Assembly: GCA_020350725.1 (NCBI GenBank)
Contig: CP070719.1
Span: 43,625-107,624, forward strand
Source of the DNA: a bacterium
Lineage (GTDB): Bacteria > BMS3Abin14
DNA length: 64,000 nt
Direction: 5' to 3'
Below the pieces are notes generated by a model. It had not been told where the DNA came from. It was given only the letters and a program-made list of their open reading frames with translations, and did not search any database. Made by a program: the position numbers and the translations under genes. Position 1 is the first letter of the stretch. Each line of letters begins with the position of its first letter. Shown piece by piece: positions 9,938-44,467 of this stretch.

Positions 9938-10028
9938 GGAACAACCCTCGAGCAAATGCCGGGATATCCGGCCGGGCCGCCAACACACCCGTTCCCCTGT
10001 CCGAGCCGTCCTCCGGGTACCCCATCAT

Positions 10029-10044
10029 TGTTTCACGTGAAACA
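10029..10044. other. parS centromere-like site (second perfect copy TGTTTCACGTGAAACA)
   Basis: Identical 16-mer to the site at 7262; in the mnmE-mnmG intergenic region. Confidence 0.85.
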
Positions 10045-10150
10045 CTCAATGCCCTGCCCCCGGGTTCTTCGCCGCATGGGCGGCTCCGCTTGGGTCACGG
10101 CCTTTATGAAAATCTGTTAACGCCATCAGGGAACGGCGGGCTTTTCGCTG

Positions 10151-11536
10151 TTACTTGCCGATGCAGAACCGGGAGAAGATCTCGTCGAGGACCATGTCGG
10201 CGGTCATCTCGCCGGTGAGCTCACCGATCCTCATCATGGCATCGCCTACATCAACCGCCACCAGTTCCGGATCGACACCTCCCTCCAGGCCGGCAGCGGC
10301 CCTCTCGCACGCTTCCTTGAGCCCGTTGAGGGCCTCGGCCTGTCGGACGGAGGTGACAACGCCTCCTTCCAGGCCAACGGGTTCCCCGCCCCGGTCCAGA
10401 ACGTGCCGATGAATGGCCGCCTTGAGGTCTTCCAGCCCGTGTCCGGTTTTCGCGGACACGGACACCGCCCCGCCGGGAGGACCGGCATCGGCAGGGTGCA
10501 GGTCGGATTTGTTGGCCACGATCACTCTGGCGACGCCCTCCGTTTCCCCGAGGAGGGACATGTCGCCCCGTCCGGGGGGCCTCGATGAGTCCAGAATGAT
10601 CAGCAGCAGGTCGGCCCTCTCCATCATCCTTCTCGTCCTCAGGACGCCCTCCACTTCCACGCCATCGGCCGCCTCTCTGATGCCCGCGGTATCCACCACC
10701 TTCACCGGAATGCCGTGGGCGTCGATCCTTCCCTCGATGAAATCTCTGGTCGTTCCGGCCATCTCATGGACGATGGCCCTCTCCTCGCCGAGGAGGGCGT
10801 TCAGGATGCTGGATTTCCCCACGTTGGGCGTTCCGATGATGACGGCGGAGAGGCCCTCCGACAGGGCGATGCCCTCCCGTGCGGTGGAAAGGAGCTTCCG
10901 GGTCAGGGCCAGTGCGTTTCGGGTGCATTCGAGGGCGCGGCCAGGCTGTATGTCGCCCTCGATCTCCTCCGGAAAGTCGATGGACGCTTCGAGGAGGGCC
11001 TTTACCTCCAGCAGGTTTCTCCTGATGGCGGCAGCTTCCCGCCCGGTCGCCCCCTCAACCTGCCGCAGCATCACCCTGCGGGCCTGATCCGTGGAAGCGT
11101 GGACGAGCCTGGCGACCGCCTCGGCCTGCGACAGATCCATCCGCCCATTGAGGAATGCCCGGCGGGTGAACTCACCCGGGTCCGCCAGGCGGGCCCCCGC
11201 CTCCAGAGAGGCCTCCAGGATGGCCTTCATGATGAGAGGTCCGCCGTGAGCGGTGATCTCGACGACGTCCTCTCCGGTGTACGACCTCGGTTGCTGAAAG
11301 AAGAGGAGGAGCGCCTGGTCAATGGGGTCGGATGCCGCGCCCGGGCGATGGGAGTGGCCCACCAGGGCCCGCCGCGGCTCCGGCGGAAAGGAGCGCCAGC
11401 CGGTCCGGGGAGTGAATACGGTCCGCGCCACCTCCAGGACCCGGGGCCCGCTGATGCGCACCATGCCTATCCCCCCGGGGCCGGGTGGGGTGGATACGGC
11501 GACGATCGTGTCCGTTCCTGGTCCTGTCCTTGCCAT
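10151..11536 (-). CDS. mnmE: tRNA modification GTPase MnmE (TrmE)
   Basis: 461 aa; G-domain GTPNVGKSS, C-terminal CIGK motif. Confidence 0.9.
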   Translation of the reverse strand: MARTGPGTDTIVAVSTPPGPGGIGMVRISGPRVLEVARTVFTPRTGWRSFPPEPRRALVGHSHRPGAASDPIDQALLLFFQQPRSYTGEDVVEITAHGGPLIMKAILEASLEAGARLADPGEFTRRAFLNGRMDLSQAEAVARLVHASTDQARRVMLRQVEGATGREAAAIRRNLLEVKALLEASIDFPEEIEGDIQPGRALECTRNALALTRKLLSTAREGIALSEGLSAVIIGTPNVGKSSILNALLGEERAIVHEMAGTTRDFIEGRIDAHGIPVKVVDTAGIREAADGVEVEGVLRTRRMMERADLLLIILDSSRPPGRGDMSLLGETEGVARVIVANKSDLHPADAGPPGGAVSVSAKTGHGLEDLKAAIHRHVLDRGGEPVGLEGGVVTSVRQAEALNGLKEACERAAAGLEGGVDPELVAVDVGDAMMRIGELTGEMTADMVLDEIFSRFCIGK

Positions 11537-24635: not shown

Positions 24636-25454
24636 TTGAATGACACCTCACTGAAAAGACCGGCCTTGCTCCTGGTCGCCGCCGCGGCTCTGTTCGCCCT
24701 GGCAGCGGCCGGCTGTTCCGCGGAAAGAAAGGAGCGGGCCCTGTACCGGCAGGCCATGATCGCCCTGGACGACGGCCTGGACGGAGCGGCTGTCGAGTAT
24801 CTTACCCGGTTTCTGGTCAAATACCCCGACAGCCCTCTCATTGAGGACTGCCTGTTCCAAAGGGGCACCATCTACTACCTTTATCAGGGACGCTATCAGG
24901 AGGCCGTATCCGATTTCAGGGAACAGCTGGCGAGATTCCCTGAGGGGGAGCGCGCCTACCAGGCAAGGAAGAACATTGCTGAGATCCTTGAGAACAAGGT
25001 GGGCAACTGCCGGGGGGCCATCGCGGAGTACCAGCGGCTCATAACCGATTTCGAAACGATCTTCGGTGACGATGAAGCCCAACTCCGGATCGCCAACTGT
25101 TACTTCGAGCTGATGAACTTCGAGCAGTCGATCCTGGAATACCAGATCCTGATCGACCGCTACCAGACGAGCCCGTTGGTTCCGGAAGCCTATTTCCGGA
25201 TCGCGACCGCCTATCAGACCGCCGGAGAGCTGGTGGACGCCGAGAGGTCCTGGCGCACCTACCTGGCCCGATACCCCGATGGGGGCCTTCGCCTGGACGC
25301 CATGTTCGGCCTCGCCTCCACCCTGGAGGAAAAGGAGGACCTGACGGAAGCACTGGCCATTTACCAGGAGATCTTCGACGCCTATGAGAACAAAGAGGCC
25401 ATCACGTGGCGAATAGAGAGAGTACGGGAAAGGCAGAGATTGAGGGGGAGGTAA
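24636..25454 (+). CDS. tetratricopeptide-repeat lipoprotein
   Basis: 272 aa; signal peptide with lipobox (LAAAGC), TPR-like helical repeats. Confidence 0.65.
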   Translation: MNDTSLKRPALLLVAAAALFALAAAGCSAERKERALYRQAMIALDDGLDGAAVEYLTRFLVKYPDSPLIEDCLFQRGTIYYLYQGRYQEAVSDFREQLARFPEGERAYQARKNIAEILENKVGNCRGAIAEYQRLITDFETIFGDDEAQLRIANCYFELMNFEQSILEYQILIDRYQTSPLVPEAYFRIATAYQTAGELVDAERSWRTYLARYPDGGLRLDAMFGLASTLEEKEDLTEALAIYQEIFDAYENKEAITWRIERVRERQRLRGR

Positions 25455-25543
25455 ACGGGGAGCAGGAGTTGCAGGTGCCGGGTTTCGGGTAAATGGCATA
25501 AAACTGGAACCTGGAACATGCCTTATCATCCCCGGAGGCGGCA

Positions 25544-26104
25544 ATGGGGAGAGAGAGACACAGGGTGTGTCCCTGGTACGAGGCCTACCTTTTCGACAAT
25601 CCCCTCAGGCGCCTCGTCCACAGTCCGGCCCGGATCCTTGGCCCGTATGTCGACACGGGCATGACCGTGCTGGACATCGGCTGCGGCATGGGGTTCTTCT
25701 CCCTGGCAATGGCTCGCCTGGTGGGGCCCGAGGGGAGGGTCTTCGCCTTGGACATCCAGCCCCAGATGCTGCGGGTGCTGAAGCGGCGGGCAATGCGGGC
25801 CGACCTGATGGACAGGATAGAGACAAGGCTCATCGGGGATAATGACCTCGGGCTCGACGGAGGTGTCGATTTCGTCCTCGCCTTCTGGATGGTTCACGAG
25901 GTCCCGGACCAGGAATCCTTCCTCCGCCGCACGGCGGCCGTTCTGAACCACGGGGCGAAGCTGCTCATCGCCGAGCCGTTCTACCATGTCAAGGCCAGGG
26001 AGATGGAAGAGGTGATCTCGGTTGCCGCCCGCCTGGGACTGACGGCCCTGGAGAGACCGAAAGTCAGGATGAGCCGCGCTGTGGTTCTGGAGAGGAAGCG
26101 GTGA
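25544..26104 (+). CDS. class I SAM-dependent methyltransferase
   Basis: 186 aa; motif I VLDIGCGMG. Confidence 0.7.
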   Translation: MGRERHRVCPWYEAYLFDNPLRRLVHSPARILGPYVDTGMTVLDIGCGMGFFSLAMARLVGPEGRVFALDIQPQMLRVLKRRAMRADLMDRIETRLIGDNDLGLDGGVDFVLAFWMVHEVPDQESFLRRTAAVLNHGAKLLIAEPFYHVKAREMEEVISVAARLGLTALERPKVRMSRAVVLERKR

Positions 26105-26270
26105 GGGCTGCTCATAAAGCGATCGGCGAGGACAATGATCCCGGGGAGCGCAGAGGGAGAAAGAGTGGCGGGGCCGACCGGGAGGAACAGCTGGGCCTGT
26201 CCCTGCCGCCGGACCGCGGCAGCCTGCCGAACCGTTCCTCACGGATCCGTCGGCGGCCGCAGGATGCACT

Positions 26271-26537
26271 TTGACCGGGCATACCCCGCACGGAGGACCC
26301 ACCTGTCTCGTGCCTTCTGATCTCGTCACAGTCTCCACCCACGCGAACGTCCTGGAGGCCGAAATGGCCAGGTCCCTCCTGAAATCGGCCGATGTCGAGT
26401 CCTTCATTCAGGCCCCTTTCGCCAACGCCCTATATCCTGGAGTGCTGGGGGAGGTCAGGCTTCAGGTCAGAGAGGCCGACCTGGGCCGGGCGAGAGAGGT
26501 GCTGGAGGGCCTGTCCGGGGCCAACGGGCAACCCTGA
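26271..26537 (+). CDS. DUF2007-like small protein (putative signal-transducing protein)
   Basis: LVTVSTHANVLEAEMARSLLKSADVESFI resembles the DUF2007 pattern; start uncertain. Confidence 0.4.
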   Translation: MTGHTPHGGPTCLVPSDLVTVSTHANVLEAEMARSLLKSADVESFIQAPFANALYPGVLGEVRLQVREADLGRAREVLEGLSGANGQP

Positions 26538-26730
26538 GGGCTGGAAACAGCGGACACGGCCCCCTGCCGGGCTTCTCCCCGTGACGGCCGTCTCGGGCCT
26601 GGTCGCCCCCGGTGCCCGCTTTTTCCATGGTCTTTCCCGGCAGGTATGGCGGCTGTTTTTCTTTGGTCGGAGCCCGTGGTAAGATCGCCGGCACGATGTC
26701 ACCGGAAACCCTCCCCGGGCAAGGGCCGAA

Positions 26731-27723
26731 ATGGACGACAGGACACGTCGGCGGTTGAAACGTCTGATGATGTGGGCGGTGATCATATTGGGAGTGGCGG
26801 CCCTGTGGTTCTGGACCACTCAGCCCCTGTTCGGAAGACAGGCTGCCTTCGAGCAGGGGCCGTCCGTCGATCCGGAAAGGCTGGAGGCCCACGTAAGGGC
26901 TCTGGCCGAGGAAATGGTCCCCCGGGACTCCGGGCACCCCGAGAACCTGCGCCGGGCGGCAGAATACATCCGGCGGGAATTCGACAGGACGAAGGGCGAG
27001 GTGACCGGGATCGATTATCAGATAGGAGGCAGGGAGTACAGCATCGTTTCCCTGCTCCTGGGCCCGCAGACGCAGGAGCGGATCGTTATCGGCGCCCACT
27101 ACGACTCGCCGCCGGGCTCCCCCGGGGCGGACGACAACGCCAGCGGAGTCGCAGGGCTGGTGGAACTGGCCCACGCGTTGAGCAGCGCGCGCCTGCCGAT
27201 GGCGGTGGAGCTGGTAGCCTATCCCGTGGAGGAGCCCCCCTTTTACCGGACGCAAGCCATGGGCAGCTTTGTCCACGCCTCTTCCCTGAGGAGACGGGGC
27301 GTGAGGGTCCGGCTCATGGTCTGCCTGGAGATGATCGGCTATTTCAACGACGGCCCCTTCACCCAGTCCTACCCTTTTCCCCTCTTTCGTCTCACCTATC
27401 CCTGGCGGGCCAACTACATAGCCGTGGTGGCCCGCCTGCGGGAGGGGAGGATCACGCGCCGGTTCAAAAGGGCCATGCGGGCTGCCTGCTCGGTGCCGGT
27501 GTTCTCTTTCAACGGCCCCTCTCTGGTCCCCGGAGTGGACCTCTCCGATCACCTGAATTACTGGAAGATGGGGTTCCGCGCCGTCATGGTAACCGACACC
27601 TCATTTTACAGGTACGATCATTATCACGGACCGGGCGACGTGGCGGCCAACCTCGATTACGGGAGGATGGCTGAGGTGGTCCGGGGCCTGTATGGTGCCG
27701 TCCTGGACACGGCAAAACGCTAG
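26731..27723 (+). CDS. M28 family zinc peptidase
   Basis: 330 aa; N-terminal TM anchor, GADDNASGVAGL metal-binding motif. Confidence 0.75.
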   Translation: MDDRTRRRLKRLMMWAVIILGVAALWFWTTQPLFGRQAAFEQGPSVDPERLEAHVRALAEEMVPRDSGHPENLRRAAEYIRREFDRTKGEVTGIDYQIGGREYSIVSLLLGPQTQERIVIGAHYDSPPGSPGADDNASGVAGLVELAHALSSARLPMAVELVAYPVEEPPFYRTQAMGSFVHASSLRRRGVRVRLMVCLEMIGYFNDGPFTQSYPFPLFRLTYPWRANYIAVVARLREGRITRRFKRAMRAACSVPVFSFNGPSLVPGVDLSDHLNYWKMGFRAVMVTDTSFYRYDHYHGPGDVAANLDYGRMAEVVRGLYGAVLDTAKR

Positions 27724-31855: not shown

Positions 31856-32308
31856 TTATTTCTGAACGCTGTTCGACCAGTGGATGTGGACGATCCGCCA
31901 CCCCGCATCCGTATTCCTCAGGACCATGGTCTCTGTGGTGGCTACGGTGACCCTCTTCCCGCTGAGTTTTCCCTTGGTCTCATATCGGGACATCACCCAC
32001 GCCGTATCATCCATAGCGTTGGCCTGCTGAGCGACCAGATCCCGTTTGGACTTCTGGCTGAATTTCAGGTCCGCATCAAGGTGGCCCGACCCGTATTCGT
32101 CCCTCGACAGCTCCGCATGACCGTCCTCGAAAAGGATGAGGTTGGGCGCGAGAAGATCCAGGGCACTTTCCCTGTCGCCCGCCGACAGGGCTCTGTGAAA
32201 TGCCGCCACGGATTCGGCCGGTCCGTCAGCGGCCGCAGGCAGAACTCCGGTCAGGAGAAAGAGGGCTGCTGCGGCAAAAGAGAAAAGAGCCAGGGTAAAA
32301 GATCTCAT
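31856..32308 (-). CDS. secreted SnoaL-like/DUF4440 (NTF2-fold) protein
   Basis: Signal peptide (MRSFTLALFSFAAAALFLL...) at internal Met; GGAGG upstream; NTF2-like C-terminus. Confidence 0.55.
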   Translation of the reverse strand: MRSFTLALFSFAAAALFLLTGVLPAAADGPAESVAAFHRALSAGDRESALDLLAPNLILFEDGHAELSRDEYGSGHLDADLKFSQKSKRDLVAQQANAMDDTAWVMSRYETKGKLSGKRVTVATTETMVLRNTDAGWRIVHIHWSNSVQK

Positions 32309-32601
32309 CGATTCCTCCCCGTGTGGCGCTGTCGAAGCTGGGCAACGCCGACCCGCCACCTGCACGTAGCGACCGGTCAGGGTGTCGACAGCGAGAGATT
32401 GTTCCCGCAGAGGATAACGAAAACACGCAGGGTTATCAATGACAACATCCTCGGCCGCGTCCCCGTCCGGCCCCCGCCCCTGTCTGGGGTCGGTGTCGGC
32501 AAACCGGCTGCGGCGGGAAGAGCGCATGTTGTGCCGTCAATACCGGACGAAGGCGTGTTAATATAATAGGAAACGGTCGAACATAACGGGCGGAGGCGAA
32601 A

Positions 32602-32973
32602 ATGCCGGACGAAGGGACAGGGACAGAAGCGGGAAAACAGAGGAAAGACGTAAGGGAATTGACCAAAAAGTTGACAGCTGTGGGGTGGGGCCTGTTCTTC
32701 ATCTGGCTGGGGATCGCCCTTCTGTTCGATGCCGAGGTGGGATTCATCCTCGTGGGTGTGGGGCTCATCACCTTTATCATGCAGGCGGCCCGCAAATACT
32801 ACGGCCTGGAATCGGAGACCTTCTGGATCGTCGTCGCGGTCCTCTTCATGGTCGTGGGGCTGTGGCAGATCCTCGATCTCAAACTCTCCCTCATGGCGGT
32901 TCTGCTGATCGTCGTCGGGGCCGCTCTCCTCGTCTCGGCCGCAAAGGGGAGACGGAAGGGGGAGGAAGGGTAG
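32602..32973 (+). CDS. small integral membrane protein, unknown function
   Basis: 123 aa with 3-4 hydrophobic helices. Confidence 0.5.
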   Translation: MPDEGTGTEAGKQRKDVRELTKKLTAVGWGLFFIWLGIALLFDAEVGFILVGVGLITFIMQAARKYYGLESETFWIVVAVLFMVVGLWQILDLKLSLMAVLLIVVGAALLVSAAKGRRKGEEG

Positions 32974-33168: not shown

Positions 33169-34035
33169 ATGAAGATCAGTGACCTGTTCGGGAAAAAAAG
33201 GGTGCTCGTTTCCTTCGAGTTCTTCCCCCCAAAAGACACCGAAAGCGAGACCATCCTCGACGAGACGGTCAGCAGGTTGAGGCGGTTCGAACCGGACTTC
33301 GTGTCGGTGACCTACGGCGCCGGGGGAAGGACGCGGGCCGGAACCATGTCCTGGACCCTGAGGATCAAGGAGAAATACGGCCAGAACGTCATGATGCATC
33401 TGACCTGCATCGCCTCGTCCAGAGAGGATATCGATCGGATCATCTCAGACCTGAAGAGTGAGGACATCAGAAATGTGCTGGCCCTCAGAGGTGATCCGCC
33501 CAGGGATTTCCCCGCCCACGAGATCAGGGATGATTTCCAGTACGCCTATCAGCTCGTGGAATATCTTCGCAGCAAAAACGGTTTTTCCATCGGGGTAGCC
33601 GGCTATCCGGAGGGCCACGTGGAAGCTCCCTCCCTGGAAAAGGACATGGAATATCTGAAGCGGAAAGTGGACTCCGGTGCGGACTTCGTCATCACCCAGA
33701 TCTTCTTCGACAACAGATACTTCTACGAATTCATGAACAGGGCCGCCCGGGAGAGGATCGGAGTGCCCATCGTCCCCGGCATCATGCCCATCATCAACCT
33801 GGGTCAGATCCAGAGATTCACCGATATGTGCGGAGCCACGGTGCCGGACCGCATTGTCCGGAACATGGAGGGCAGGAATGCCGCGGACATGTTCCGGGTC
33901 GGCGTTGACGGCGCCATCGACCAGTGCCGAGAGCTCCTGGAGTTCGGTGTCGCCGGCCTCCATTTCTATACCCTCAATCGAAACGGAGCCACCGAGGAGA
34001 TCCTCGAGGAGATCATCACGGACGTCAGGGCCTGA
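33169..34035 (+). CDS. metF: 5,10-methylenetetrahydrofolate reductase
   Basis: FFPPK...VSVTYGAGG...HLTC motifs; start at internal Met (MKISDLF...). Confidence 0.85.
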   Translation: MKISDLFGKKRVLVSFEFFPPKDTESETILDETVSRLRRFEPDFVSVTYGAGGRTRAGTMSWTLRIKEKYGQNVMMHLTCIASSREDIDRIISDLKSEDIRNVLALRGDPPRDFPAHEIRDDFQYAYQLVEYLRSKNGFSIGVAGYPEGHVEAPSLEKDMEYLKRKVDSGADFVITQIFFDNRYFYEFMNRAARERIGVPIVPGIMPIINLGQIQRFTDMCGATVPDRIVRNMEGRNAADMFRVGVDGAIDQCRELLEFGVAGLHFYTLNRNGATEEILEEIITDVRA

Positions 34036-34123
34036 CCGGGCAGGTCAAGATCGCTCGCCGCCGTCGCGAAAGCCGTCCTCCGGGGCGGCTTTCACGTCTG
34101 GAAAGGTACCTGGTGGGCTTGGT

Positions 34124-35098
34124 TTATTCGAACAGGACGTTGGCGTCCACCCGATGGCCGGCTGCCTTGAGCAGCTTGATGAGGTTGATCTGCCACCCGC
34201 CGTCGGCCTGATAGGGCAAATAGGCGACGCCGAAGAACCCGGTTGGAACATCACTGGGCCTGTCTCCCCCGTGGAGGACGGCGACCCTGCCCTGTCCGAG
34301 CCTGCCGACGAGGTATCCGAGTTCGAAGATGATGTCCTGCCGGTGCCTCGGCTTGGCGATCTTGGCGGTGAGCCCCGGCAGGCCGCTCCTGTCGTCGGAG
34401 GGCAGTATGATCAGACAGAAACCAAGATCGGGCAGGGCCGCGATCCCCTCGATCTGGGATGCGGAGGATGACTGGGTTTCATCGATCATTGTCGCCTCGA
34501 CACCGAGCTTGTCGAGAAGACTGACCACGGAAAGGGTCATCTCGTCTTCCCTGGTGTGGAGCAGGAGGACACCCCTGTTCTCTTCCGGGGCGGGCCCCTC
34601 TGCCGGGGGGGGAGGTGGTGCGGCCGGCACCCTCGGCGCCTCCGGAGCCTTGGTCTTTGGGGCCGGCTTTTCCTCCACCAGGTCCTCTGCCTTGATCTCC
34701 AGGATCGCTCCACCCGCCCCGGACGGGAGGTCGTCGATGGCCGCCAGGATCTCCTCCAGCTGGGCGATGGCCTTGGGAATTCCCATCTCGAATTTCATCT
34801 GCTTTTCCGCGTGGGAATCCCTCAGGCTGACGTGGCCCATGAAGACCCTGAAAGCGCCGAACCTTTCCTGCTCGGGCGAATCCTCACCGAAGACGCCGGC
34901 GACAGTAGCGGCGACGGTCCGCTGCAGATCTTCGATCTCAGGGCTGTCGAAAGGGACGATCTTGGGATCGATGAAGCGGAGCTGGTCAAGGACCGAGGTA
35001 ATGGTCTGTCTGCCTCTGTCGACGGATATCCTGCCCACGGCCGCTCCCATGTCTCCGGCCCCTGCCGGGGAGAATGAGTGACGCACTCTACCGGACAA
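34124..35098 (-). CDS. two-domain protein: unknown N-terminal domain, Pro-rich linker, C-terminal TIR-like nucleotide-binding domain (COG4271-like)
   Basis: C-terminus VLLLHTREDE...FCLIILPSDD...RQDIIFELGYLVGRLGQGRVAVL...RPSDVPTG matches the TIR-like pattern recalled from memory (FIVHGHD / AIVLLTPDD / RQNVIFELGYFIGKLGR). Confidence 0.6.
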   Translation of the reverse strand: MSGRVRHSFSPAGAGDMGAAVGRISVDRGRQTITSVLDQLRFIDPKIVPFDSPEIEDLQRTVAATVAGVFGEDSPEQERFGAFRVFMGHVSLRDSHAEKQMKFEMGIPKAIAQLEEILAAIDDLPSGAGGAILEIKAEDLVEEKPAPKTKAPEAPRVPAAPPPPPAEGPAPEENRGVLLLHTREDEMTLSVVSLLDKLGVEATMIDETQSSSASQIEGIAALPDLGFCLIILPSDDRSGLPGLTAKIAKPRHRQDIIFELGYLVGRLGQGRVAVLHGGDRPSDVPTGFFGVAYLPYQADGGWQINLIKLLKAAGHRVDANVLFE

Positions 35099-35308
35099 TC
35101 TGGTTCTATTGTAACGACCATTACCCTGTTTTGCCAGCGAAAGAGGGTCTTTCTGAGGCAGGCGGCCGTAACGAAGGAAGGACAGGGTGTATTGCGCACC
35201 GCGTCTGTTTTTCCTACAATTAACCCGGGTTCACGGTTTTTGACCGGAGGCCCCCCGGGTCGCATACTCCGGACCGGGGCCTTCGAGCGGCCAGAGGGGG
35301 CTTTGCCC

Positions 35309-36229
35309 GTGAAGAGCACCCTGCTGAGCAGTAGCTTTCTCGCCCTGCTCCTCTTCCTGCCGGCCCAGGTTGTCGCCGGGGCTCTGGAGCAGGGGGTCGA
35401 CGCCTATGATCGCCAGGAGTTCGAGCTTGCCCTTTCCCTTCTCGAGCCCCTTGCAGCGGAAGGTCTCCCGGAGGCACAGCACTATCTGGGCAACATGTAC
35501 GCCTCCGGCGGGGGTGTTGTCCAGGATTTCACCGAAGCCCTTAAGTGGTGGTCTCTGGCCGCGGCTCAGGATCATACGGCCTCTCAGTACAACCTGGCAT
35601 ATCTCTATCATGACGGTCTCGGTGTCCCGGCCGACATTGACAGGGCTCTGGAATGGTACCGCCGCGCCGCGTCACACGGTGAACCGAACGCCCTGTATAC
35701 TCTCGGACAGATGTATGCAGTCGGGGAAGGCGTTCCACAGAGCCGCACCGAGGCCAAGCGTTATTGGCAGGATGCTGCAAACAGGGGCGATCCCGATGCC
35801 CAATACGACCTGGGCCTTCTGTACAGCGAGGAGGATGGCCGGGATCAGGCGGCGGCGCTGGGCTGGTTCCTCAGGGCGGCAGAGCAGGGGCATCCCTATG
35901 CCCAGTACCGCGCGGGTACCAGCTATTACGAGGGACGAGGGTGCACCGCAGATCCGCGAAGGGCCTTTGATTGGCTCAAGAAGGCGGCCGAACAGGGGGT
36001 CCCTGACGCCCAGGCCGACGTCGCAGCCATGTACGCACGGGGCGTGGGGGCACCCCTGGACATCTCGGCCGCCGTAACGTGGTATCATCGGGCCGGCCGA
36101 TCCCTCCTGTCGGACGGGAGGAGGGACGAAGCCATGGAGATCCTGGACATGATCGCCGAGACCGATCCGGGCAGCGACTCCTACCGGAAACTCTACACCG
36201 AGATCTTCGGCGGGGCGTCGGCCCCTTGA
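35309..36229 (+). CDS. secreted Sel1-repeat protein
   Basis: GTG start, signal peptide, multiple Sel1-like repeats (AQYNLAYLYHDGLGVPAD..., ALYTLGQMYAVGEGVPQS...). Confidence 0.7.
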   Translation: MKSTLLSSSFLALLLFLPAQVVAGALEQGVDAYDRQEFELALSLLEPLAAEGLPEAQHYLGNMYASGGGVVQDFTEALKWWSLAAAQDHTASQYNLAYLYHDGLGVPADIDRALEWYRRAASHGEPNALYTLGQMYAVGEGVPQSRTEAKRYWQDAANRGDPDAQYDLGLLYSEEDGRDQAAALGWFLRAAEQGHPYAQYRAGTSYYEGRGCTADPRRAFDWLKKAAEQGVPDAQADVAAMYARGVGAPLDISAAVTWYHRAGRSLLSDGRRDEAMEILDMIAETDPGSDSYRKLYTEIFGGASAP

Positions 36230-36981: not shown

Positions 36982-37122
36982 TCCTGCCGGACCGGCTTGA
37001 CGGCTCCTCCCCCTCTGGCAGGCCGAAGCCCCTGTGGACGATCACGGTCCGGGGGGCCGGATGGCGGGGCCCGGATGGCCGCCGGGCCGGCGACGTTCGC
37101 TCCCCAGAGGTCATGGAAGATA

Positions 37123-37884
37123 ATGGTCCGCCCGGGCAATCCTGACCACGGGAGGCATCCGCCGATCCACCTCGGAGGAATAGGGATCTCCCATGACAGA
37201 TACCCCACCCGGGATCATCATCCGTTCAACCTCGAGATCCTGCAGAACACATCCAGACTGATCTTCTCCTCACCGGTCACGTTCTTTGCCGGCGAGAACG
37301 GGTCCGGCAAGTCCACCCTCCTCCGTGGCATCTGCCTGAGCTGCGGCATTCACATATGGGAGAGCGAGCGACGCAGGCGCCTCGAGCCCAACCGATACGA
37401 GGGCAGACTGCACGAGGCGATTGACGTCCAGTGGAGCAGCCAAGGGGTTCCTGGTGCGTTCTTCGCGTCCGAGATCTTCAGGGATTTTTCCCAGGCGTTG
37501 GACGAGTTCGCGGCGGCGGATCCGGGCTTCCTTCGCTACTTCGGCGGCAGATCCCTTGTCAGCCAGTCTCACGGTCAGTCCATCATGTCCTATTTCAGGT
37601 CACGGTGCCGGATCGAGGGCCTGTACCTCCTCGATGAACCGGAGACGGCGCTGTCGCCGCGGAGCCAGATCCAACTCCTGCGGATCCTGGCCGGAGCCTG
37701 CCGGGGTGGGGGAGCCCAGTTCATCATAGCCAGCCACTCGCCCATCCTGCTGTCCTGCCCCGGAGCCCTGATCTACAGCTTCGACGGCGACGCAGTCGAG
37801 CCCATTTCCTATGAGGAGACCGATCACTACCGGGTCTACCATGATTTCATGCTGGACAGAAACAGGTACCTCGCCGGCCCGTGA
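37123..37884 (+). CDS. orphan ABC-type (AAA_21-like) ATPase
   Basis: 253 aa; Walker A GENGSGKST, Walker B LYLLDEPETALS, H-loop ASHSP; no transporter permease nearby. Confidence 0.7.
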   Translation: MVRPGNPDHGRHPPIHLGGIGISHDRYPTRDHHPFNLEILQNTSRLIFSSPVTFFAGENGSGKSTLLRGICLSCGIHIWESERRRRLEPNRYEGRLHEAIDVQWSSQGVPGAFFASEIFRDFSQALDEFAAADPGFLRYFGGRSLVSQSHGQSIMSYFRSRCRIEGLYLLDEPETALSPRSQIQLLRILAGACRGGGAQFIIASHSPILLSCPGALIYSFDGDAVEPISYEETDHYRVYHDFMLDRNRYLAGP

Positions 37885-38052: not shown

Positions 38053-38583
38053 TCACATAAACCGGTCAAAGCGGTCCCCTTCCGCGTGGCAGATGGGACA
38101 GGTCTCGGGCGGTGTATGGCGCGCACAGAGGTATCCGCACACCCGGCACCTCCAGACCGGGTAGGCCAGGCCGGAGGATGCCGGGTGGTCGGTGTTCTCC
38201 CTTCCGGCCCGTTTCTGCCCCTCGGGGGGGCGCCGCTCCGGGATCGGCCCGGCCTGCCCCCTGCCCTCAGCGATATCGGCCGATACGTAAAGGGCACAGT
38301 AGCAGGACCCGAATTCAGCCAGGTCGGGATCCCTGTAATCACAGGGGCAGATGATGTCGAGGTCGCGCTCCCGTTGGCCGTCGGCGAGACGACAGGGGCA
38401 GGCCATGTAGCCGTAGCGCTCCTGGTTGACAAGCAGGCTTCGGACGAGCTCCATCGTGAAGGGTCTGTCAGGATTGAGGTGATATCCTCCTGCCGAGGCG
38501 TTCTCGATGAGCTCCCGGTATGCTTCCTCCACCCGGCGGGAGGAAGGCTCCTCCATCGACTCCCTCCGGTCCCTGTTCTTCAT
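38053..38583 (-). CDS. ferredoxin:thioredoxin-reductase catalytic-subunit-like protein fused to C-terminal rubredoxin (FDR-type)
   Basis: CPC...CPC...C.C cysteine pattern (ACPCRL, ICPCDYR, SCYCAL) plus rubredoxin CxxC...CPxC (CRVCGYLC...CPICHA); start ATG overlaps upstream stop (ATGA). Confidence 0.75.
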   Translation of the reverse strand: MKNRDRRESMEEPSSRRVEEAYRELIENASAGGYHLNPDRPFTMELVRSLLVNQERYGYMACPCRLADGQRERDLDIICPCDYRDPDLAEFGSCYCALYVSADIAEGRGQAGPIPERRPPEGQKRAGRENTDHPASSGLAYPVWRCRVCGYLCARHTPPETCPICHAEGDRFDRFM

Positions 38584-38861
38584 TTGGAGACCATTTCCTG
38601 GAGCCTGTCGGGATCGAAGCCGACCAGACACTCCGATCCGTTGACCACCACTGTGGGATAGGAACAGCGGGGATTCCACCGCTTCAGTTCCTCCAGCGCC
38701 CGGGTCTTCTCCTCCGGTGGAAGAAGGTCCACGTCAACGTAAGTGTATTCCAGGCCGGCATCGTTCAGCCAGGCCTTCGTCTTTCGACACCACCCGCAGG
38801 TGCTGAGAGTATACAGAAAGATCTTTCCTCTGTCGGTTCCGGGAACGTGGACCTTCTCCAT
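38580..38861 (-). CDS. glutaredoxin/thioredoxin-like protein (CGWC active site)
   Basis: FLYTLSTCGWCRKTKAWL...VDVD...PTVVVNG; translationally coupled to the downstream FTR-like gene. Confidence 0.7.
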   Translation of the reverse strand: MEKVHVPGTDRGKIFLYTLSTCGWCRKTKAWLNDAGLEYTYVDVDLLPPEEKTRALEELKRWNPRCSYPTVVVNGSECLVGFDPDRLQEMVSK

Positions 38862-39016
38862 TGACAACCTCCGGGCTGTTTGAGTGCTGGCAGGGGAGGG
38901 CGGGGCGAACTCCATCCCCGGCTCCTGGTTTTTCCCAAAGTATATTACAGACAGAGCCCTCCTTCCACCCGTTCGACCCTCCTGCCTGACAGGTCATCCC
39001 TGTCGGCCCGGAAGCG

Positions 39017-40973: not shown

Positions 40974-43292
40974 ATGCTGCTCCGCCTGTCCGTCCTCCTC
41001 CTGTCCTCTTCGGTCCTCTGCTACGAGATCGTCATCATACGGCTTCTCACCATCTCTCACTGGCAACCCTTCGTCACCCTGGCCATCTCCGTCGCCCTGC
41101 TCGGCTTCGGTATCAGCGGGAGTGTCCTGGTGCGTACGGGCGGGTTCCTCTTTCCGAGGCGCCACGTCTGCTACCCTCTCTTCGCCGCCCTGGCCGCCCT
41201 TTCCTACAGGCCGATGCTGGCCGCGGCCGGCCTTCTCCGGCTTGAACCGGCCCTGATCGTCAGGGATCTGGAGCAGTGGGCGACCCTTGCTCTCCTGGTG
41301 GTCACGCTGACCTTGCCTTTTCTCCTCGCCTCACTCGCCCTCGCCCTGCCCCTTCTGGAGCGCGAGACAGTGGGCCGATATTATGGGTGGAACCTCACCG
41401 GGTCCTGTCTCGGAGCCCTTATGGCCCTGGCGGCCCTCGCCCTTCTCCCCCCCGGCGCCCTGGCAGGCGTGCCGACGGCGGCCGCCGCCGCCGCATGCGC
41501 CGTGTCCCTTCCCCATTATCACCGGCTGTCCCGTCCCTATGACATGGTGATCCTGGCGACGGCGATCCTCCTCCCGACTTTACTCATACCTTTCGGCCCC
41601 GTTCGCTACGGTCCTTACAAGGACATCTCCTATGCCCTCCTGCTCCCCGGGTCCCGGATCTCCGCCCGGGAGGGGGGCGTCACGGGGTTGATCCAGGCCG
41701 TTCAGGCGCCGGCGATACGTTCAGCAGCGGGGCTCTCGACCGGTTATCCGGGCCAATTGCCCCCCCAGGGGGCGCTTTTCAGGGACGGCGACCGCATCGG
41801 GACGCTCGTCCTGGCTGACGACGTAGCGGATACCCGCCTGGAGTATGTCCGCTGGCAGACGGGAGCAGCTGCCTACGAGATGCTGACCCCCGGAGCGGAG
41901 GTGGCTGTCGTCGGTTTCGACGGAGGGGAGGAGATGGTAAGGTCGCTGGTCTACGGGGCCTCCCGGGTTGCGGTAGCCGAAGCGGATCCGGTGGCGCAGA
42001 GGATGGCAGGGTCGACTCCCGAGGTCTTCAAGGAGTGGATATTTTTCCACCCGGGTGTGTCCCTGGTCACCTCCAATATCCGATCCTTTCTGGTCTCGGC
42101 TCCGGGACGGTTCGATGCAGTGATCTTCCCGGCCTCGGGCAACCTGGCGGCCGCCGCGGCGGGGTTGACCGGCACGGCTGAAAGCTATGAACTCACCCAT
42201 GAGGGAATAGGCGCCGCCCTGGAGGCCCTCCGGGAGGGAGGCCTGGTCGCCATCAGCGGGTGGAACCAGGAGCCGCCCACCGCCCGCCTGAAGATATTGG
42301 CCGTGCTGAGGGACCTGGCCGAGGACCTGAACGAGAGCTGGTACCCAGAAGGGGTGGCCGTCATCGAGGGGTGGTCCACCCACACCGTCATCGTCCGACG
42401 CACTGCCCTCTCGGCAGGGGATCTGGATGCCCTGGCGGCCTTCTGCCGATCCAGGGCCTTTTCCCTGGTCAGGAAATGGGACCTTGGGGATGGGGAGGGG
42501 AGGATGCTGGGAGAGCGGAACGTGGGCGGTCTTGAAGGGTATGATCTGCGGCCGCCCGTGGACGACAGGCCCTTCCCCTGGCACTCCATGAAAGTGTCCC
42601 AGCTGGGCCGCATGGCCGGCCGCCGGGGGGAGGCAGCCTTCCTGAAGGTCGAGTGGGGATTTCTCTTCCTGATCATGACCCTGGTCCTGTCGGTGGCGCT
42701 TTCGCTGGTTCTGTTGGCCCTTTCCAGGCCAGCCAACCGATCGTCGGCCGCCCGTTGGCCGTTTACCCTTTACTTCTCCTCTCTGGGAATTGGGTACATG
42801 GTCATCGAGGTCATGACCATCAAGAGGGGCGGCCTCGTCCTGGCGCCTCCGGCCGTCTCGGCCGCCCTCGTTCTGGCCGGCTTTCTCCTCTTCTCCGGGC
42901 TGGGGAGTCTCACGGCGGGTAAACTCCACCGCAGGACAGGACATGTTCCCATGCTGTTCCCGTTCATCCCGATCGCGGCAGCGGGCATTTACTTCCTGAT
43001 GCCCCACCTCGTCCAGCTGGCGACGCCGATCAGGGTCATCATGGTCCTTGTCCTTTTGGCCCCCTGCGCCTACCTGATGGGGTTTCCTTTCCCGGCGGCT
43101 CTCGGCGGTTTCCGAACCCGAAGGGAATCCCTTGTGCCGTGGGCGTGGGCCGCCTCGGGATACACGTCGGTCCTCGGCAGTTCCCTGGCCGGGGTTCTGG
43201 CCATCACCGGAGGCCTCTTCGTCCTGCTCCTCCTCGGAGCCGCCTGTTATGTCCTGGCCGCCATCCTTTTTCCCCGGGTGGCACGGGAGTGA
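40974..43292 (+). CDS. polytopic membrane protein with central spermidine-synthase-like (methyltransferase-fold) domain
   Basis: 772 aa; N- and C-terminal multi-TM blocks; N-terminal YEIVIIRLL motif typical of membrane-fused SpeE-like proteins; starts 7 nt after pcm. Confidence 0.55.
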   Translation: MLLRLSVLLLSSSVLCYEIVIIRLLTISHWQPFVTLAISVALLGFGISGSVLVRTGGFLFPRRHVCYPLFAALAALSYRPMLAAAGLLRLEPALIVRDLEQWATLALLVVTLTLPFLLASLALALPLLERETVGRYYGWNLTGSCLGALMALAALALLPPGALAGVPTAAAAAACAVSLPHYHRLSRPYDMVILATAILLPTLLIPFGPVRYGPYKDISYALLLPGSRISAREGGVTGLIQAVQAPAIRSAAGLSTGYPGQLPPQGALFRDGDRIGTLVLADDVADTRLEYVRWQTGAAAYEMLTPGAEVAVVGFDGGEEMVRSLVYGASRVAVAEADPVAQRMAGSTPEVFKEWIFFHPGVSLVTSNIRSFLVSAPGRFDAVIFPASGNLAAAAAGLTGTAESYELTHEGIGAALEALREGGLVAISGWNQEPPTARLKILAVLRDLAEDLNESWYPEGVAVIEGWSTHTVIVRRTALSAGDLDALAAFCRSRAFSLVRKWDLGDGEGRMLGERNVGGLEGYDLRPPVDDRPFPWHSMKVSQLGRMAGRRGEAAFLKVEWGFLFLIMTLVLSVALSLVLLALSRPANRSSAARWPFTLYFSSLGIGYMVIEVMTIKRGGLVLAPPAVSAALVLAGFLLFSGLGSLTAGKLHRRTGHVPMLFPFIPIAAAGIYFLMPHLVQLATPIRVIMVLVLLAPCAYLMGFPFPAALGGFRTRRESLVPWAWAASGYTSVLGSSLAGVLAITGGLFVLLLLGAACYVLAAILFPRVARE

Positions 43293-43432: not shown

Positions 43433-44467
43433 ATGACGGAGCATATCATCCACATAGACGGATCCCTTGGCGAGGGAGGCGGGCAGGTTCTCAGGACGGC
43501 CACCGGCCTGTCGTCCCTGCTGAAGATCCCGGTTCGGGTTGACAATATCAGGGCGAGCAGGCCTCGACCCGGCCTGGCAGCCCAGCACATGACCGGCATC
43601 AAGGCGCTTTGCCGTCTCACCGGCGGAACAGCCGAGGGCCTTTCGGTTGGATCGGAAGAAGTCATATTCAGACCGGGCGGCGGACAGAAGGCGCGACTGG
43701 ATATCGATGTCGGCACGGCCGGATCCGTCACCCTGATCCTCCAGGGGCTCCTCGTTGCCCTGGCGAGGGCTCCCGGCCGGGTCCGGTTGACCCTGAGGGG
43801 GGGCACAGACGTGGGATGGAGCCCCCCCTTTCACTATTTCTCGCGGGTTCTGTGCCCCCTGCTCGCCCAGATGGGGATTCCGGTCAAGGGGCGGCTGATC
43901 CGTACCGGTTTCTATCCCAAGGGGGGCGGGGAAGTGGAGGTGGCGGTGACCGCCCCGGGTCCCCTGCAGCCGTTCCGCCCGGCATCTCCCCCGGCGGCCC
44001 CCGCCATCCGGGCCTTTGTCGTGGCCAGCGAGGACCTGAGGAAAGCCCGGGTGGCCGAAAGGCTTCTCAGGGGGGCGAGGTCGATCTTTCCGGAGATCAA
44101 GGCCGAAAGGGAATATCGGTCCTGCCTGTCCACGGGGTGTTCCATCGTCGTAACCGCTTCCGGTGGTGGAGCCGTCCTGGGAGCTGATTCCCTCGGGGAG
44201 AAGGGGACCAGGGCCGAGGAGGTCGGAGCGAGGGCGGCGGCGCGCCTTGCCGAAGAGCTGGCGTCGGACGTATCGGTCGACGAATGGGCCTCGGATCAGA
44301 TCCTTCCCTTCCTGGCCCTGGCCGGCGGCGAGTCCTCCTTTCTCGCCCGGACCCTGACCCGGCACGCCGAGACGAACATGAGGATCATAGAACGCTTCCT
44401 CCCGGCCCGGTTTCGCGTCCAGGAGGTGGGAGGAAAGGTTCGGGTTTCCTGCCTCCCGAAAGGGTGA
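43433..44467 (+). CDS. rtcA: RNA 3'-terminal phosphate cyclase
   Basis: IDGSLGEGGGQVLRTA N-terminus and overall RtcA-like sequence; start at internal Met. Confidence 0.8.
   Translation: MTEHIIHIDGSLGEGGGQVLRTATGLSSLLKIPVRVDNIRASRPRPGLAAQHMTGIKALCRLTGGTAEGLSVGSEEVIFRPGGGQKARLDIDVGTAGSVTLILQGLLVALARAPGRVRLTLRGGTDVGWSPPFHYFSRVLCPLLAQMGIPVKGRLIRTGFYPKGGGEVEVAVTAPGPLQPFRPASPPAAPAIRAFVVASEDLRKARVAERLLRGARSIFPEIKAEREYRSCLSTGCSIVVTASGGGAVLGADSLGEKGTRAEEVGARAAARLAEELASDVSVDEWASDQILPFLALAGGESSFLARTLTRHAETNMRIIERFLPARFRVQEVGGKVRVSCLPKG

Follow-up and report, generated by a model that had tools for sequence, protein, structure and literature searches.

A standalone TIR-like protein from an uncultured bacterium as a putative, vertically inherited branch of the candidate family PDC-S35

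CAP12-type TIR domains have been described in the literature as NADases, enzymes acting on nicotinamide adenine dinucleotide (NAD+), which require a catalytic glutamate and oligomerisation, and standalone TIR proteins are treated there as likely NAD+-depleting effectors. Two described proteins with TIR domains of this class (PF10137) are Cap12, the TIR-STING protein of the cyclic oligonucleotide-based antiphage signalling system (CBASS), and PycTIR of Pycsar. PADLOC also lists PDC-S35, a single-gene candidate of about 287 amino acids (aa) in which an N-terminal module precedes the PF10137 domain; we found no experimental report on PDC-S35 in the literature, and it has the status of a candidate. 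A parallel of another kind comes from the AbiJ-NTD modules of abortive-infection proteins, in which a constant head is joined to a swappable tail (Anantharaman et al. 2013, PMC3710099). Here we describe a TIR-like protein encoded on the minus strand of a 64,000-nucleotide stretch of DNA (the window; positions 43,625 to 107,624 of contig CP070719.1, assembly GCA_020350725.1) from a bacterium of the GTDB lineage BMS3Abin14. Judged from the sequence, its gene represents a branch of the very common candidate family PDC-S35 that is divergent and has been inherited vertically. How common this family is can be seen from a search with one canonical query, in which the canonical protein with head and TIR-like domain (about 287 aa, annotated as 'predicted nucleotide-binding protein') returned at least 7,195 clusters at E <= 1e-20. 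The full-length search with the window protein found ten full-length relatives with 41-62% identity, and together with further representatives the orthologous group comprises about 15 clusters from five GTDB species, all of them metagenome-assembled genomes of uncultured organisms. The group comes out as monophyletic with respect to the canonical proteins in a neighbour-joining tree that carries no support values.

A preliminary description of this locus had read the C-terminal part of the protein as a TIR-like domain, and all our comparisons agree with it. The strings on which that description relied (HTREDE, FCLIILPSDD, RQDIIFELGYLVGRLG, RPSDVPTG and, for the linker, PAPKTKAPEAPRVPAAPPPPPAEGPAPEE) all occur in the translation of the open reading frame (ORF). 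The hidden Markov model (HMM) search which it had proposed gave a match of the C-terminal half to PF10137 with 47 bits (E 3e-12, gathering cutoff 24.7) over model positions 2-117 of 119, and five PADLOC models of PDC-S35 match the same half with E values from 7e-33 to 6e-13. Among solved structures, the family profile matched Cap12 (7un8, 9lmq) and PycTIR (8jsj). The AlphaFold 2 (AF2) model predicted for this domain is confident, and with it Foldseek placed TIR-STING structures (9lmq, 9lmr, 7un8) at ranks 1-10 with an E value of 2.6e-5 and a probability of 1.0; these were followed by the SPARTA TIR-APAZ complex and, lower, by SARM1, MAL and SEFIR domains among generic receiver folds. By profile and by predicted fold, which is flavodoxin-like, the C-terminal domain is a TIR-like domain of the CAP12/Pycsar class. 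When the sequence is aligned by HMM to 7un8 and 9lmq, its F-E-L-G falls on the F-E-F-G of Cap12, and Glu243 takes the position of the catalytic glutamate. We take the glutamate at this position to be catalytic partly by reference to E84 of SfSTING. The window protein also keeps the DD motif and the histidine after the first beta strand in the alignment. Glutamate occupies the Glu243 position in every canonical relative caught by the motif pattern, and lysine replaces it in one subclade of the orthologues. Just before the catalytic helix lies a loop of consensus GL[PS]GLTAxIAKP[RK] which is conserved throughout the orthologous group, in the Glu and in the Lys subclade, and is missing from the canonical relatives in the alignments; residues 221-235 form a low-confidence loop in the AF2 model.

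The N-terminal part of about 110 aa had earlier been considered unrecognisable. It is true that no Pfam or NCBIfam model covers this region of the window protein, but the region turned out to be a widespread module, since a profile made from it finds 439 proteins at E <= 1e-3 among 1.84 billion cluster representatives. A profile built from the orthologues only, leaving out the canonical sequence P0011, still detects 112 of 145 proteins at E <= 1e-3 on the scale of the whole library, and the homology of the module to the wider family is robust and independent of the inclusion of P0011. The PADLOC model PDLC05005 of PDC-S35, 264 positions long, matches the N-terminal domain alone with its positions 6-95 (E 5e-4) and the C-terminal half with its positions 115-262 (E 7e-33). 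As the two halves match in order, the protein is collinear with the candidate family. The signature motifs of the module are F-G-x-x-S-x-E and Q-x-K-F-E-x-G-[IL]-P-x-A, and AF2 predicts helices at residues 10-26, 37-54, 59-64 and 80-107 with a pLDDT (predicted local distance difference test) of 83.

We asked which domains accompany this module and counted them by a Pfam scan in 136 of the 439 module-bearing proteins. PF10137 was the partner in 36, Hypoth_Ymh (a HEPN family according to PMC3710099) in 16, TIR_2 in six and the DpnII/MboI nuclease in four, and PLDc_2, CHAT, Abi_C, TIR, GGDEF and DUF2321 were found once each; no Pfam family recurs over the module itself in these 136 proteins, even at E <= 1. 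Such a constant N-terminal module with a swappable toxic tail is, as far as domain composition tells, the layout of conflict systems. The AbiJ-NTD modules are likewise about 100 aa long, mostly helical and N-terminal, and are likewise swapped among HEPN (Ymh, AbiJ/Abi_C), restriction endonuclease, HKD/PLD and TIR domains (PMC3710099); the likeness is one of description only, and Pfam AbiJ_NTD or DUF3644 gave no recurrent match in the same 136 proteins at E <= 1. The earlier suggestion of a single-gene sensor-effector fits well with this modular architecture and with the listing of PDC-S35 as a single-gene candidate. Because no partner gene is conserved across the orthologues, the protein appears to be self-contained. 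The module, which has no Pfam model, is common to thousands of TIR-like, HEPN, nuclease, PLD and CHAT proteins and is a good target for learning how single-gene abortive-infection proteins sense their trigger. It also occurs in two to four copies in long proteins of 918-2,020 aa (P0019, P0021, P0028, P0029, P0043, P0055, P0066, P0115 and P0133), and in the six of these that were scanned against Pfam (P0019, P0021, P0028, P0029, P0043 and P0055) there is no significant match elsewhere.

The two domains are joined by a linker with 13 prolines, 10 alanines and 8 glutamates in 50 residues, of which residues 112-155 are predicted to be disordered (AF2 pLDDT < 50). Its mean pairwise identity among the orthologues is 0.26, as against 0.50 and 0.53 for the two domains, and its length varies in their alignment. 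The linker had been called unusual. A Pro-rich linker is normal for this family, and it is the length that stands out: from the end of the N-terminal module to the motif glutamate there are 136-181 aa in the orthologous group, compared with a median of 106 aa (5th-95th percentile 104-111) in 135 canonical proteins. From these distances the long linker is read as a normally short and often Pro-rich linker that has grown by 30-75 aa, least of all in the window protein. Between the N-terminal module and the Pro-rich part of the linker lies an acidic motif, E-I-x-[AP]-E-D-[LM]-V, which, unlike the remaining linker, is kept in orthologues down to about 40% identity and may serve for docking or autoinhibition.

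How does the window protein compare with the described systems? With PDC-S35 it shares the same collinear two-domain architecture and the standalone arrangement. In contrast to the canonical proteins, the group to which it belongs has a longer linker, has lost the motifs HG[RH]D (after the first beta strand) and GRT..EKFE and carries RQD in place of RQN; it is vertically inherited in a conserved neighbourhood without defence context, and it has a sister subclade without the glutamate. Cap12 belongs to the same PF10137 subclass and provides the closest solved structures as well as the aligned F-E-x-G glutamate, but its TIR domain is N-terminal, whereas that of the window protein is C-terminal, and the latter has no STING domain and no CD-NTase gene nearby. 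Identity with Cap12 was rejected on these grounds and on the scores of the NCBIfam Cap12 models, which reach 18 and 14 bits where the cutoff is 450 bits. PycTIR also has a C-terminal PF10137 TIR domain after an N-terminal regulatory domain, and its profile matches are weak; the PADLOC PycTIR model covers only the TIR part (E 1.6e-5). We rejected this identity too, since the N-terminal domain is a predicted helical bundle and not a cNMP-binding domain and no pyrimidine cyclase gene is adjacent. ThsB of Thoeris was likewise rejected: the gene is monocistronic, and no SIR2, SLOG, Macro or transmembrane (TM) effector adjoins it in any orthologous locus.

We hypothesize that the window gene encodes a standalone cytoplasmic TIR-like protein which is probably an oligomerisation-activated NADase, and to this explanation as a whole, built by analogy, we give a probability of roughly 0.45. 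The N-terminal helical bundle would act as a regulatory, sensing or self-association module, and the disordered linker would tether it to the TIR-like domain. Association of TIR-like domains in response to a trigger would then create a composite active site in which Glu243 would hydrolyse NAD+, and growth arrest would follow as in abortive infection or a stress response. These steps are modelled on CAP12/Pycsar TIRs; what our data support directly are the domain identities, the fold, the presence of the glutamate, the shuffling of the N-terminal module, the lack of partner genes and the vertical inheritance. To calibrate the genomic context we used four canonical genes of the same architecture (the GTDB relatives L017-L037 were rejected for this purpose, since the TIR-like domain is all that they share and they lack the N-terminal module). 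It speaks for the hypothesis that some of these canonical relatives have variable or mobile surroundings containing further TIR genes. The region around one of them is rich in transposases and contains a TIR_2 fragment, and another adjoins a TIR_2 gene that is missing from the sister contig. The other two stand alone between ordinary genes. A link to defence islands or variable regions was thus seen for two of the four canonical PDC-S35-type members and not for the orthologous group. The missing TIR_2 gene shows a second TIR gene to be polymorphic, on a small scale, in its presence or absence, for beside the same canonical gene contig L047 carries a 293-aa TIR_2 gene (9991-10872) and the sister contig L048 an unrelated 133-aa gene (1795-2196). 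Should the NADase mechanism be true, little would be added beyond a further standalone TIR effector that depletes NAD+.

Several observations weigh against this explanation, and above all against a role in defence. The neighbours of the TIR-like gene are ordinary, housekeeping-type genes of the chromosome. Within about 15 kb of it there are no PADLOC matches other than a generic resemblance of two ATPases in the P-loop, and there is neither an integrase nor a transposase; the G+C content of the gene (0.63) equals that of its flanks, with no compositional anomaly. Synteny with the sister species extends over the whole block, and the TIR-like protein is 62% identical there, compared with 54-77% for its neighbours. 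At 40-45% identity, the orthologues are still found a few kb or less from the SnoaL gene, the Zn-ribbon gene, the gene of the 123-aa membrane protein or metF, in rearranged order, and the orthologous group is found outside defence islands. The Sel1-repeat and ATPase genes are missing from the neighbourhoods of L007, L008, L010 and L014. Given the kept synteny, the neighbour-like divergence and the lack of conservation of the Sel1, secreted-protein and ATPase genes as its partners, the TIR-like gene is best read as standalone and vertically inherited. The preliminary description had named conserved presence across the clade as what would speak against its proposal of an anti-phage effector, and to a substantial degree this is what we see, with the same chromosomal neighbourhood recurring across orthologues of 40-62% identity. 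A close relative clearly without the TIR-like gene was not found, in a sampling too thin for a claim of universality; one close syntenic contig (L045) ends right after metF, and metF homologues at 65-70% identity span unrelated lineages, one of which (P0166) has a different context. All orthologues share the motif losses and the RQN to RQD change given above. Moreover, a single nested clade (P0005, P0008, P0009, P0013, P0015, L013 and L014) has lysine in place of the glutamate and GQ in place of DD. This clade, of at least seven lineages and about half of the orthologues, is strongly conserved around the change, and for this reason the common function of the group may not need NAD+ hydrolysis. 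The window protein belongs to the clade which retains the glutamate. The structure prediction and fold search proposed earlier for the N-terminal domain gave the confident helical bundle and, as matches in the PDB, generic helical bundles only, and in the literature searched there is no experimental test of any member with the head and TIR-like architecture. The proposed anti-phage effector therefore stands as a TIR-like effector at the level of the family and is weakened as to defence by the conserved neighbourhood, the lack of defence genes within about 15 kb and the lysine in about half of the orthologues; a defence role of the window gene is plausible as a family-level inference only.

Could the protein have left its ancestral role behind? 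The main rival explanation, a serious one though less probable than the NADase, is that this uncultured lineage fixed an ancestral gene of the defence type, which today has a host function, for instance as a nucleotide- or ligand-binding regulator or as a protein-protein adaptor, NAD+ hydrolysis being dispensable or residual. The window copy would then share a conserved non-defence role despite keeping Glu243. The long-term synteny and neighbour-like divergence argue for this, as do the absence of a defence or mobile context and the lack of any relative of the TIR-like protein in the viral contigs. So does the exchange of canonical motifs for the new loop GL[PS]GLTAxIAKP in Glu and Lys subclades alike, and so does the change from glutamate to lysine, which has a single origin, in a nested clade whose members went on diverging while remaining conserved; the literature also holds a precedent, in that TIR proteins of the CAP12-type class act without the catalytic glutamate after domestication. 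On the other hand, the window subclade keeps Glu243, DD and the histidine after the first beta strand, as would be expected from the sequence of an active enzyme, single-gene defence genes often lie outside islands (two of the four canonical relatives are solitary), and the clade sample is small, with about 15 clusters from five GTDB species. A more specific history, in which an uncultured lineage captured and domesticated an abortive-infection-type TIR effector, the gene becoming fixed in the chromosome, its linker expanded, its motifs replaced by the new loop and its glutamate lost in a daughter clade, seems to us rather unlikely. If it were true, it would be a bacterial parallel to the eukaryotic conversion of enzymatic TIRs into non-catalytic adaptors, with the window copy as a glutamate-retaining intermediate. 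The pair of Glu and Lys forms in a conserved, vertically inherited protein offers in any case a clean test of non-catalytic roles for bacterial TIR-like domains.

An oligomerisation-activated NADase also has to be weighed against other chemistry and against a multi-gene arrangement. Perhaps the domain acts as an N-glycosidase on nucleosides or nucleotides, has an activity like that of deoxyribosyltransferases or makes a signalling nucleotide rather than depleting bulk NAD+. A weak but recurrent similarity to Nuc_deoxyrib_tr (six of 136 family members at E <= 1), the divergent surroundings of the active site in the orthologous group and the literature on TIRs which make signalling molecules instead of depleting NAD+ point this way. 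That similarity is sub-threshold, however, the best sequence and structure matches are the NAD+-depleting Cap12 and PycTIR domains, and a signalling TIR would need an adjoining effector gene, none of which is conserved; we regard the idea as improbable. The preliminary description had further considered an accessory module of the TIR-like gene with the Sel1-repeat protein, the small secreted protein and the AAA_21/ABC-type ATPase. These four genes adjoin one another in the window as they do in the sister species, and the ATPase is weakly similar to the defence ATPases AriA, PtuA and MAD3. Yet in L013 the ATPase gene has remained beside those for ferredoxin-thioredoxin reductase (FTR) and glutaredoxin, with metF and about 6 kb between it and the TIR-like gene; in the four neighbourhoods named above it is missing together with Sel1, and the genes in the window are divergently transcribed. 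The Sel1-repeat and 118-aa proteins have signal-like N-termini and the TIR-like protein has none. Where the ATPase matches defence models, the match is confined to generic P-loop and signature regions, with scores far below the curated cutoffs. Such a module is very improbable, and the ATPase was rejected as a partner of the TIR-like protein on synteny and on these sub-threshold, generic matches.

The coordinates given earlier for the gene (34124-35098) are those of the maximal ORF in the ORF list of the window, which begins at TTG 35098. The start codon is more likely the ATG at 35050, because GGAG lies just 5' of it in the window sequence, an identical 308-aa protein (P0001) was called independently on a metagenomic contig, and the orthologues start at the equivalent position in their alignment. 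As described before, the gene is monocistronic between metF and the Sel1 gene, with the flanking genes as then listed: it is convergent with metF, whose stop lies at 34035 (88-bp gap), and divergent from the Sel1 gene (255 bp). In the divergent intergenic region the promoter scan found a weak sigma-70-like match at 35137-35108 on the minus strand (CTGGCA-18-TACAAT), which agrees at only 9 of 12 positions. Rfam gave no match in the whole window at gathering thresholds, nor in 33900-35500 at E <= 1, and so offers no riboswitch clue. The GC-rich hairpin between the convergent genes is possibly a bidirectional terminator, as suggested by its predicted fold; the z-score of the 101-nt region is only -1.3, a U-tract is absent, and the terminator scan did not report it. 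The features of the gene and its surroundings are collected in Table 1.

Table 1. Positions of the TIR-like gene, its parts and its neighbours in the window.
Feature	Position	Strand	Remarks
Coding sequence of the TIR-like protein (likely start)	34124..35050	-	308 aa; TAA stop at 34124-34126
N-terminal helical module, residues 8-107	34730..35029	-	predicted up-down helical bundle
Linker, residues 108-157	34580..34729	-	Pro/Ala/Glu/Lys-rich after short acidic motif
Acidic motif, residues 112-119	34694-34717	-	E-I-x-[AP]-E-D-[LM]-V
C-terminal TIR-like domain, residues 158-308	34127..34579	-	predicted CAP12/Pycsar class (PF10137), five-stranded alpha/beta fold
Clade-specific loop, residues 220-234	34349..34393	-	S-G-L-P-G-L-T-A-K-I-A-K-P-R-H; just before catalytic helix
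Motif R237-Q-D-I-I-F-E243-L-G245	34316..34342	-	Glu243 codon GAA at 34322-34324
Divergent intergenic region	35051..35305		common to TIR-like and Sel1-repeat genes; promoter scan
GC-rich hairpin	34065..34096		11-bp stem between convergent stops of metF and TIR-like gene; RNA fold centroid
Neighbours on the metF side	window		HD-GYP response regulator, LysE, Zn-ribbon protein, secreted SnoaL/DUF4440 protein, 123-aa membrane protein, methylenetetrahydrofolate reductase (MTHFR)
Neighbours on the Sel1 side	window		Sel1-repeat protein (x6), 118-aa secreted protein, 270-aa AAA_21/ABC-type ATPase, FTR-rubredoxin fusion, glutaredoxin, outer-membrane protein, PCMT
SnoaL/DUF4440-type gene	31856-32311	-	
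123-aa predicted membrane protein	32602-32973	+	immediately upstream of metF
AAA_21/ABC-type ATPase	37072-37884	+	270 aa
FTR-rubredoxin gene	38053-38915	-	
Three consecutive ORFs	24648-27552	-	298, 293 and 361 aa
ORF	40974-43292	+	772 aa

Some of the neighbouring genes deserve a comment of their own. A SnoaL/DUF4440-type gene recurs near the TIR-like gene, in L007 (9334-9780), L010 (221-694) and L047 (7538-7957) as well as in the window. In two orthologues of the Lys subclade (L007 and L010) it is directly upstream on the same strand. The distance is about 2 kb in the window and in the sister species, and in L047 the SnoaL gene lies upstream of the canonical relative at a distance of about 1 kb. 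The 684-aa protein P0056 combines two copies of the N-terminal module with a C-terminal SnoaL domain. A direct functional link between the SnoaL protein and the TIR-like protein is doubtful, since the SnoaL protein of the window has a signal-like N-terminus.

The ATPase is an orphan with generic P-loop and signature similarity to AriA, PtuA, MAD3 and ABC transporters; it occurs in L002 and, in L013, keeps its place beside the genes for FTR and glutaredoxin, as befits another vertically inherited gene. Next to it, the catalytic-subunit domain of FTR is fused to a C-terminal rubredoxin-like domain, and a glutaredoxin-family ORF immediately upstream overlaps this gene, so that the two form a compact redox pair, conserved in L013. 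The 772-aa ORF has no Pfam, PADLOC or NCBIfam match, and the three consecutive ORFs have no Pfam or PADLOC match; in DNA of such high GC content, some of these ORFs may have been called on the wrong strand. The 123-aa predicted membrane protein could be assigned to no family. It is encoded upstream of metF in the window, L001/L002, L013, L014 and L045 with 50-72% identity and appears to be a lineage-specific companion of metF.

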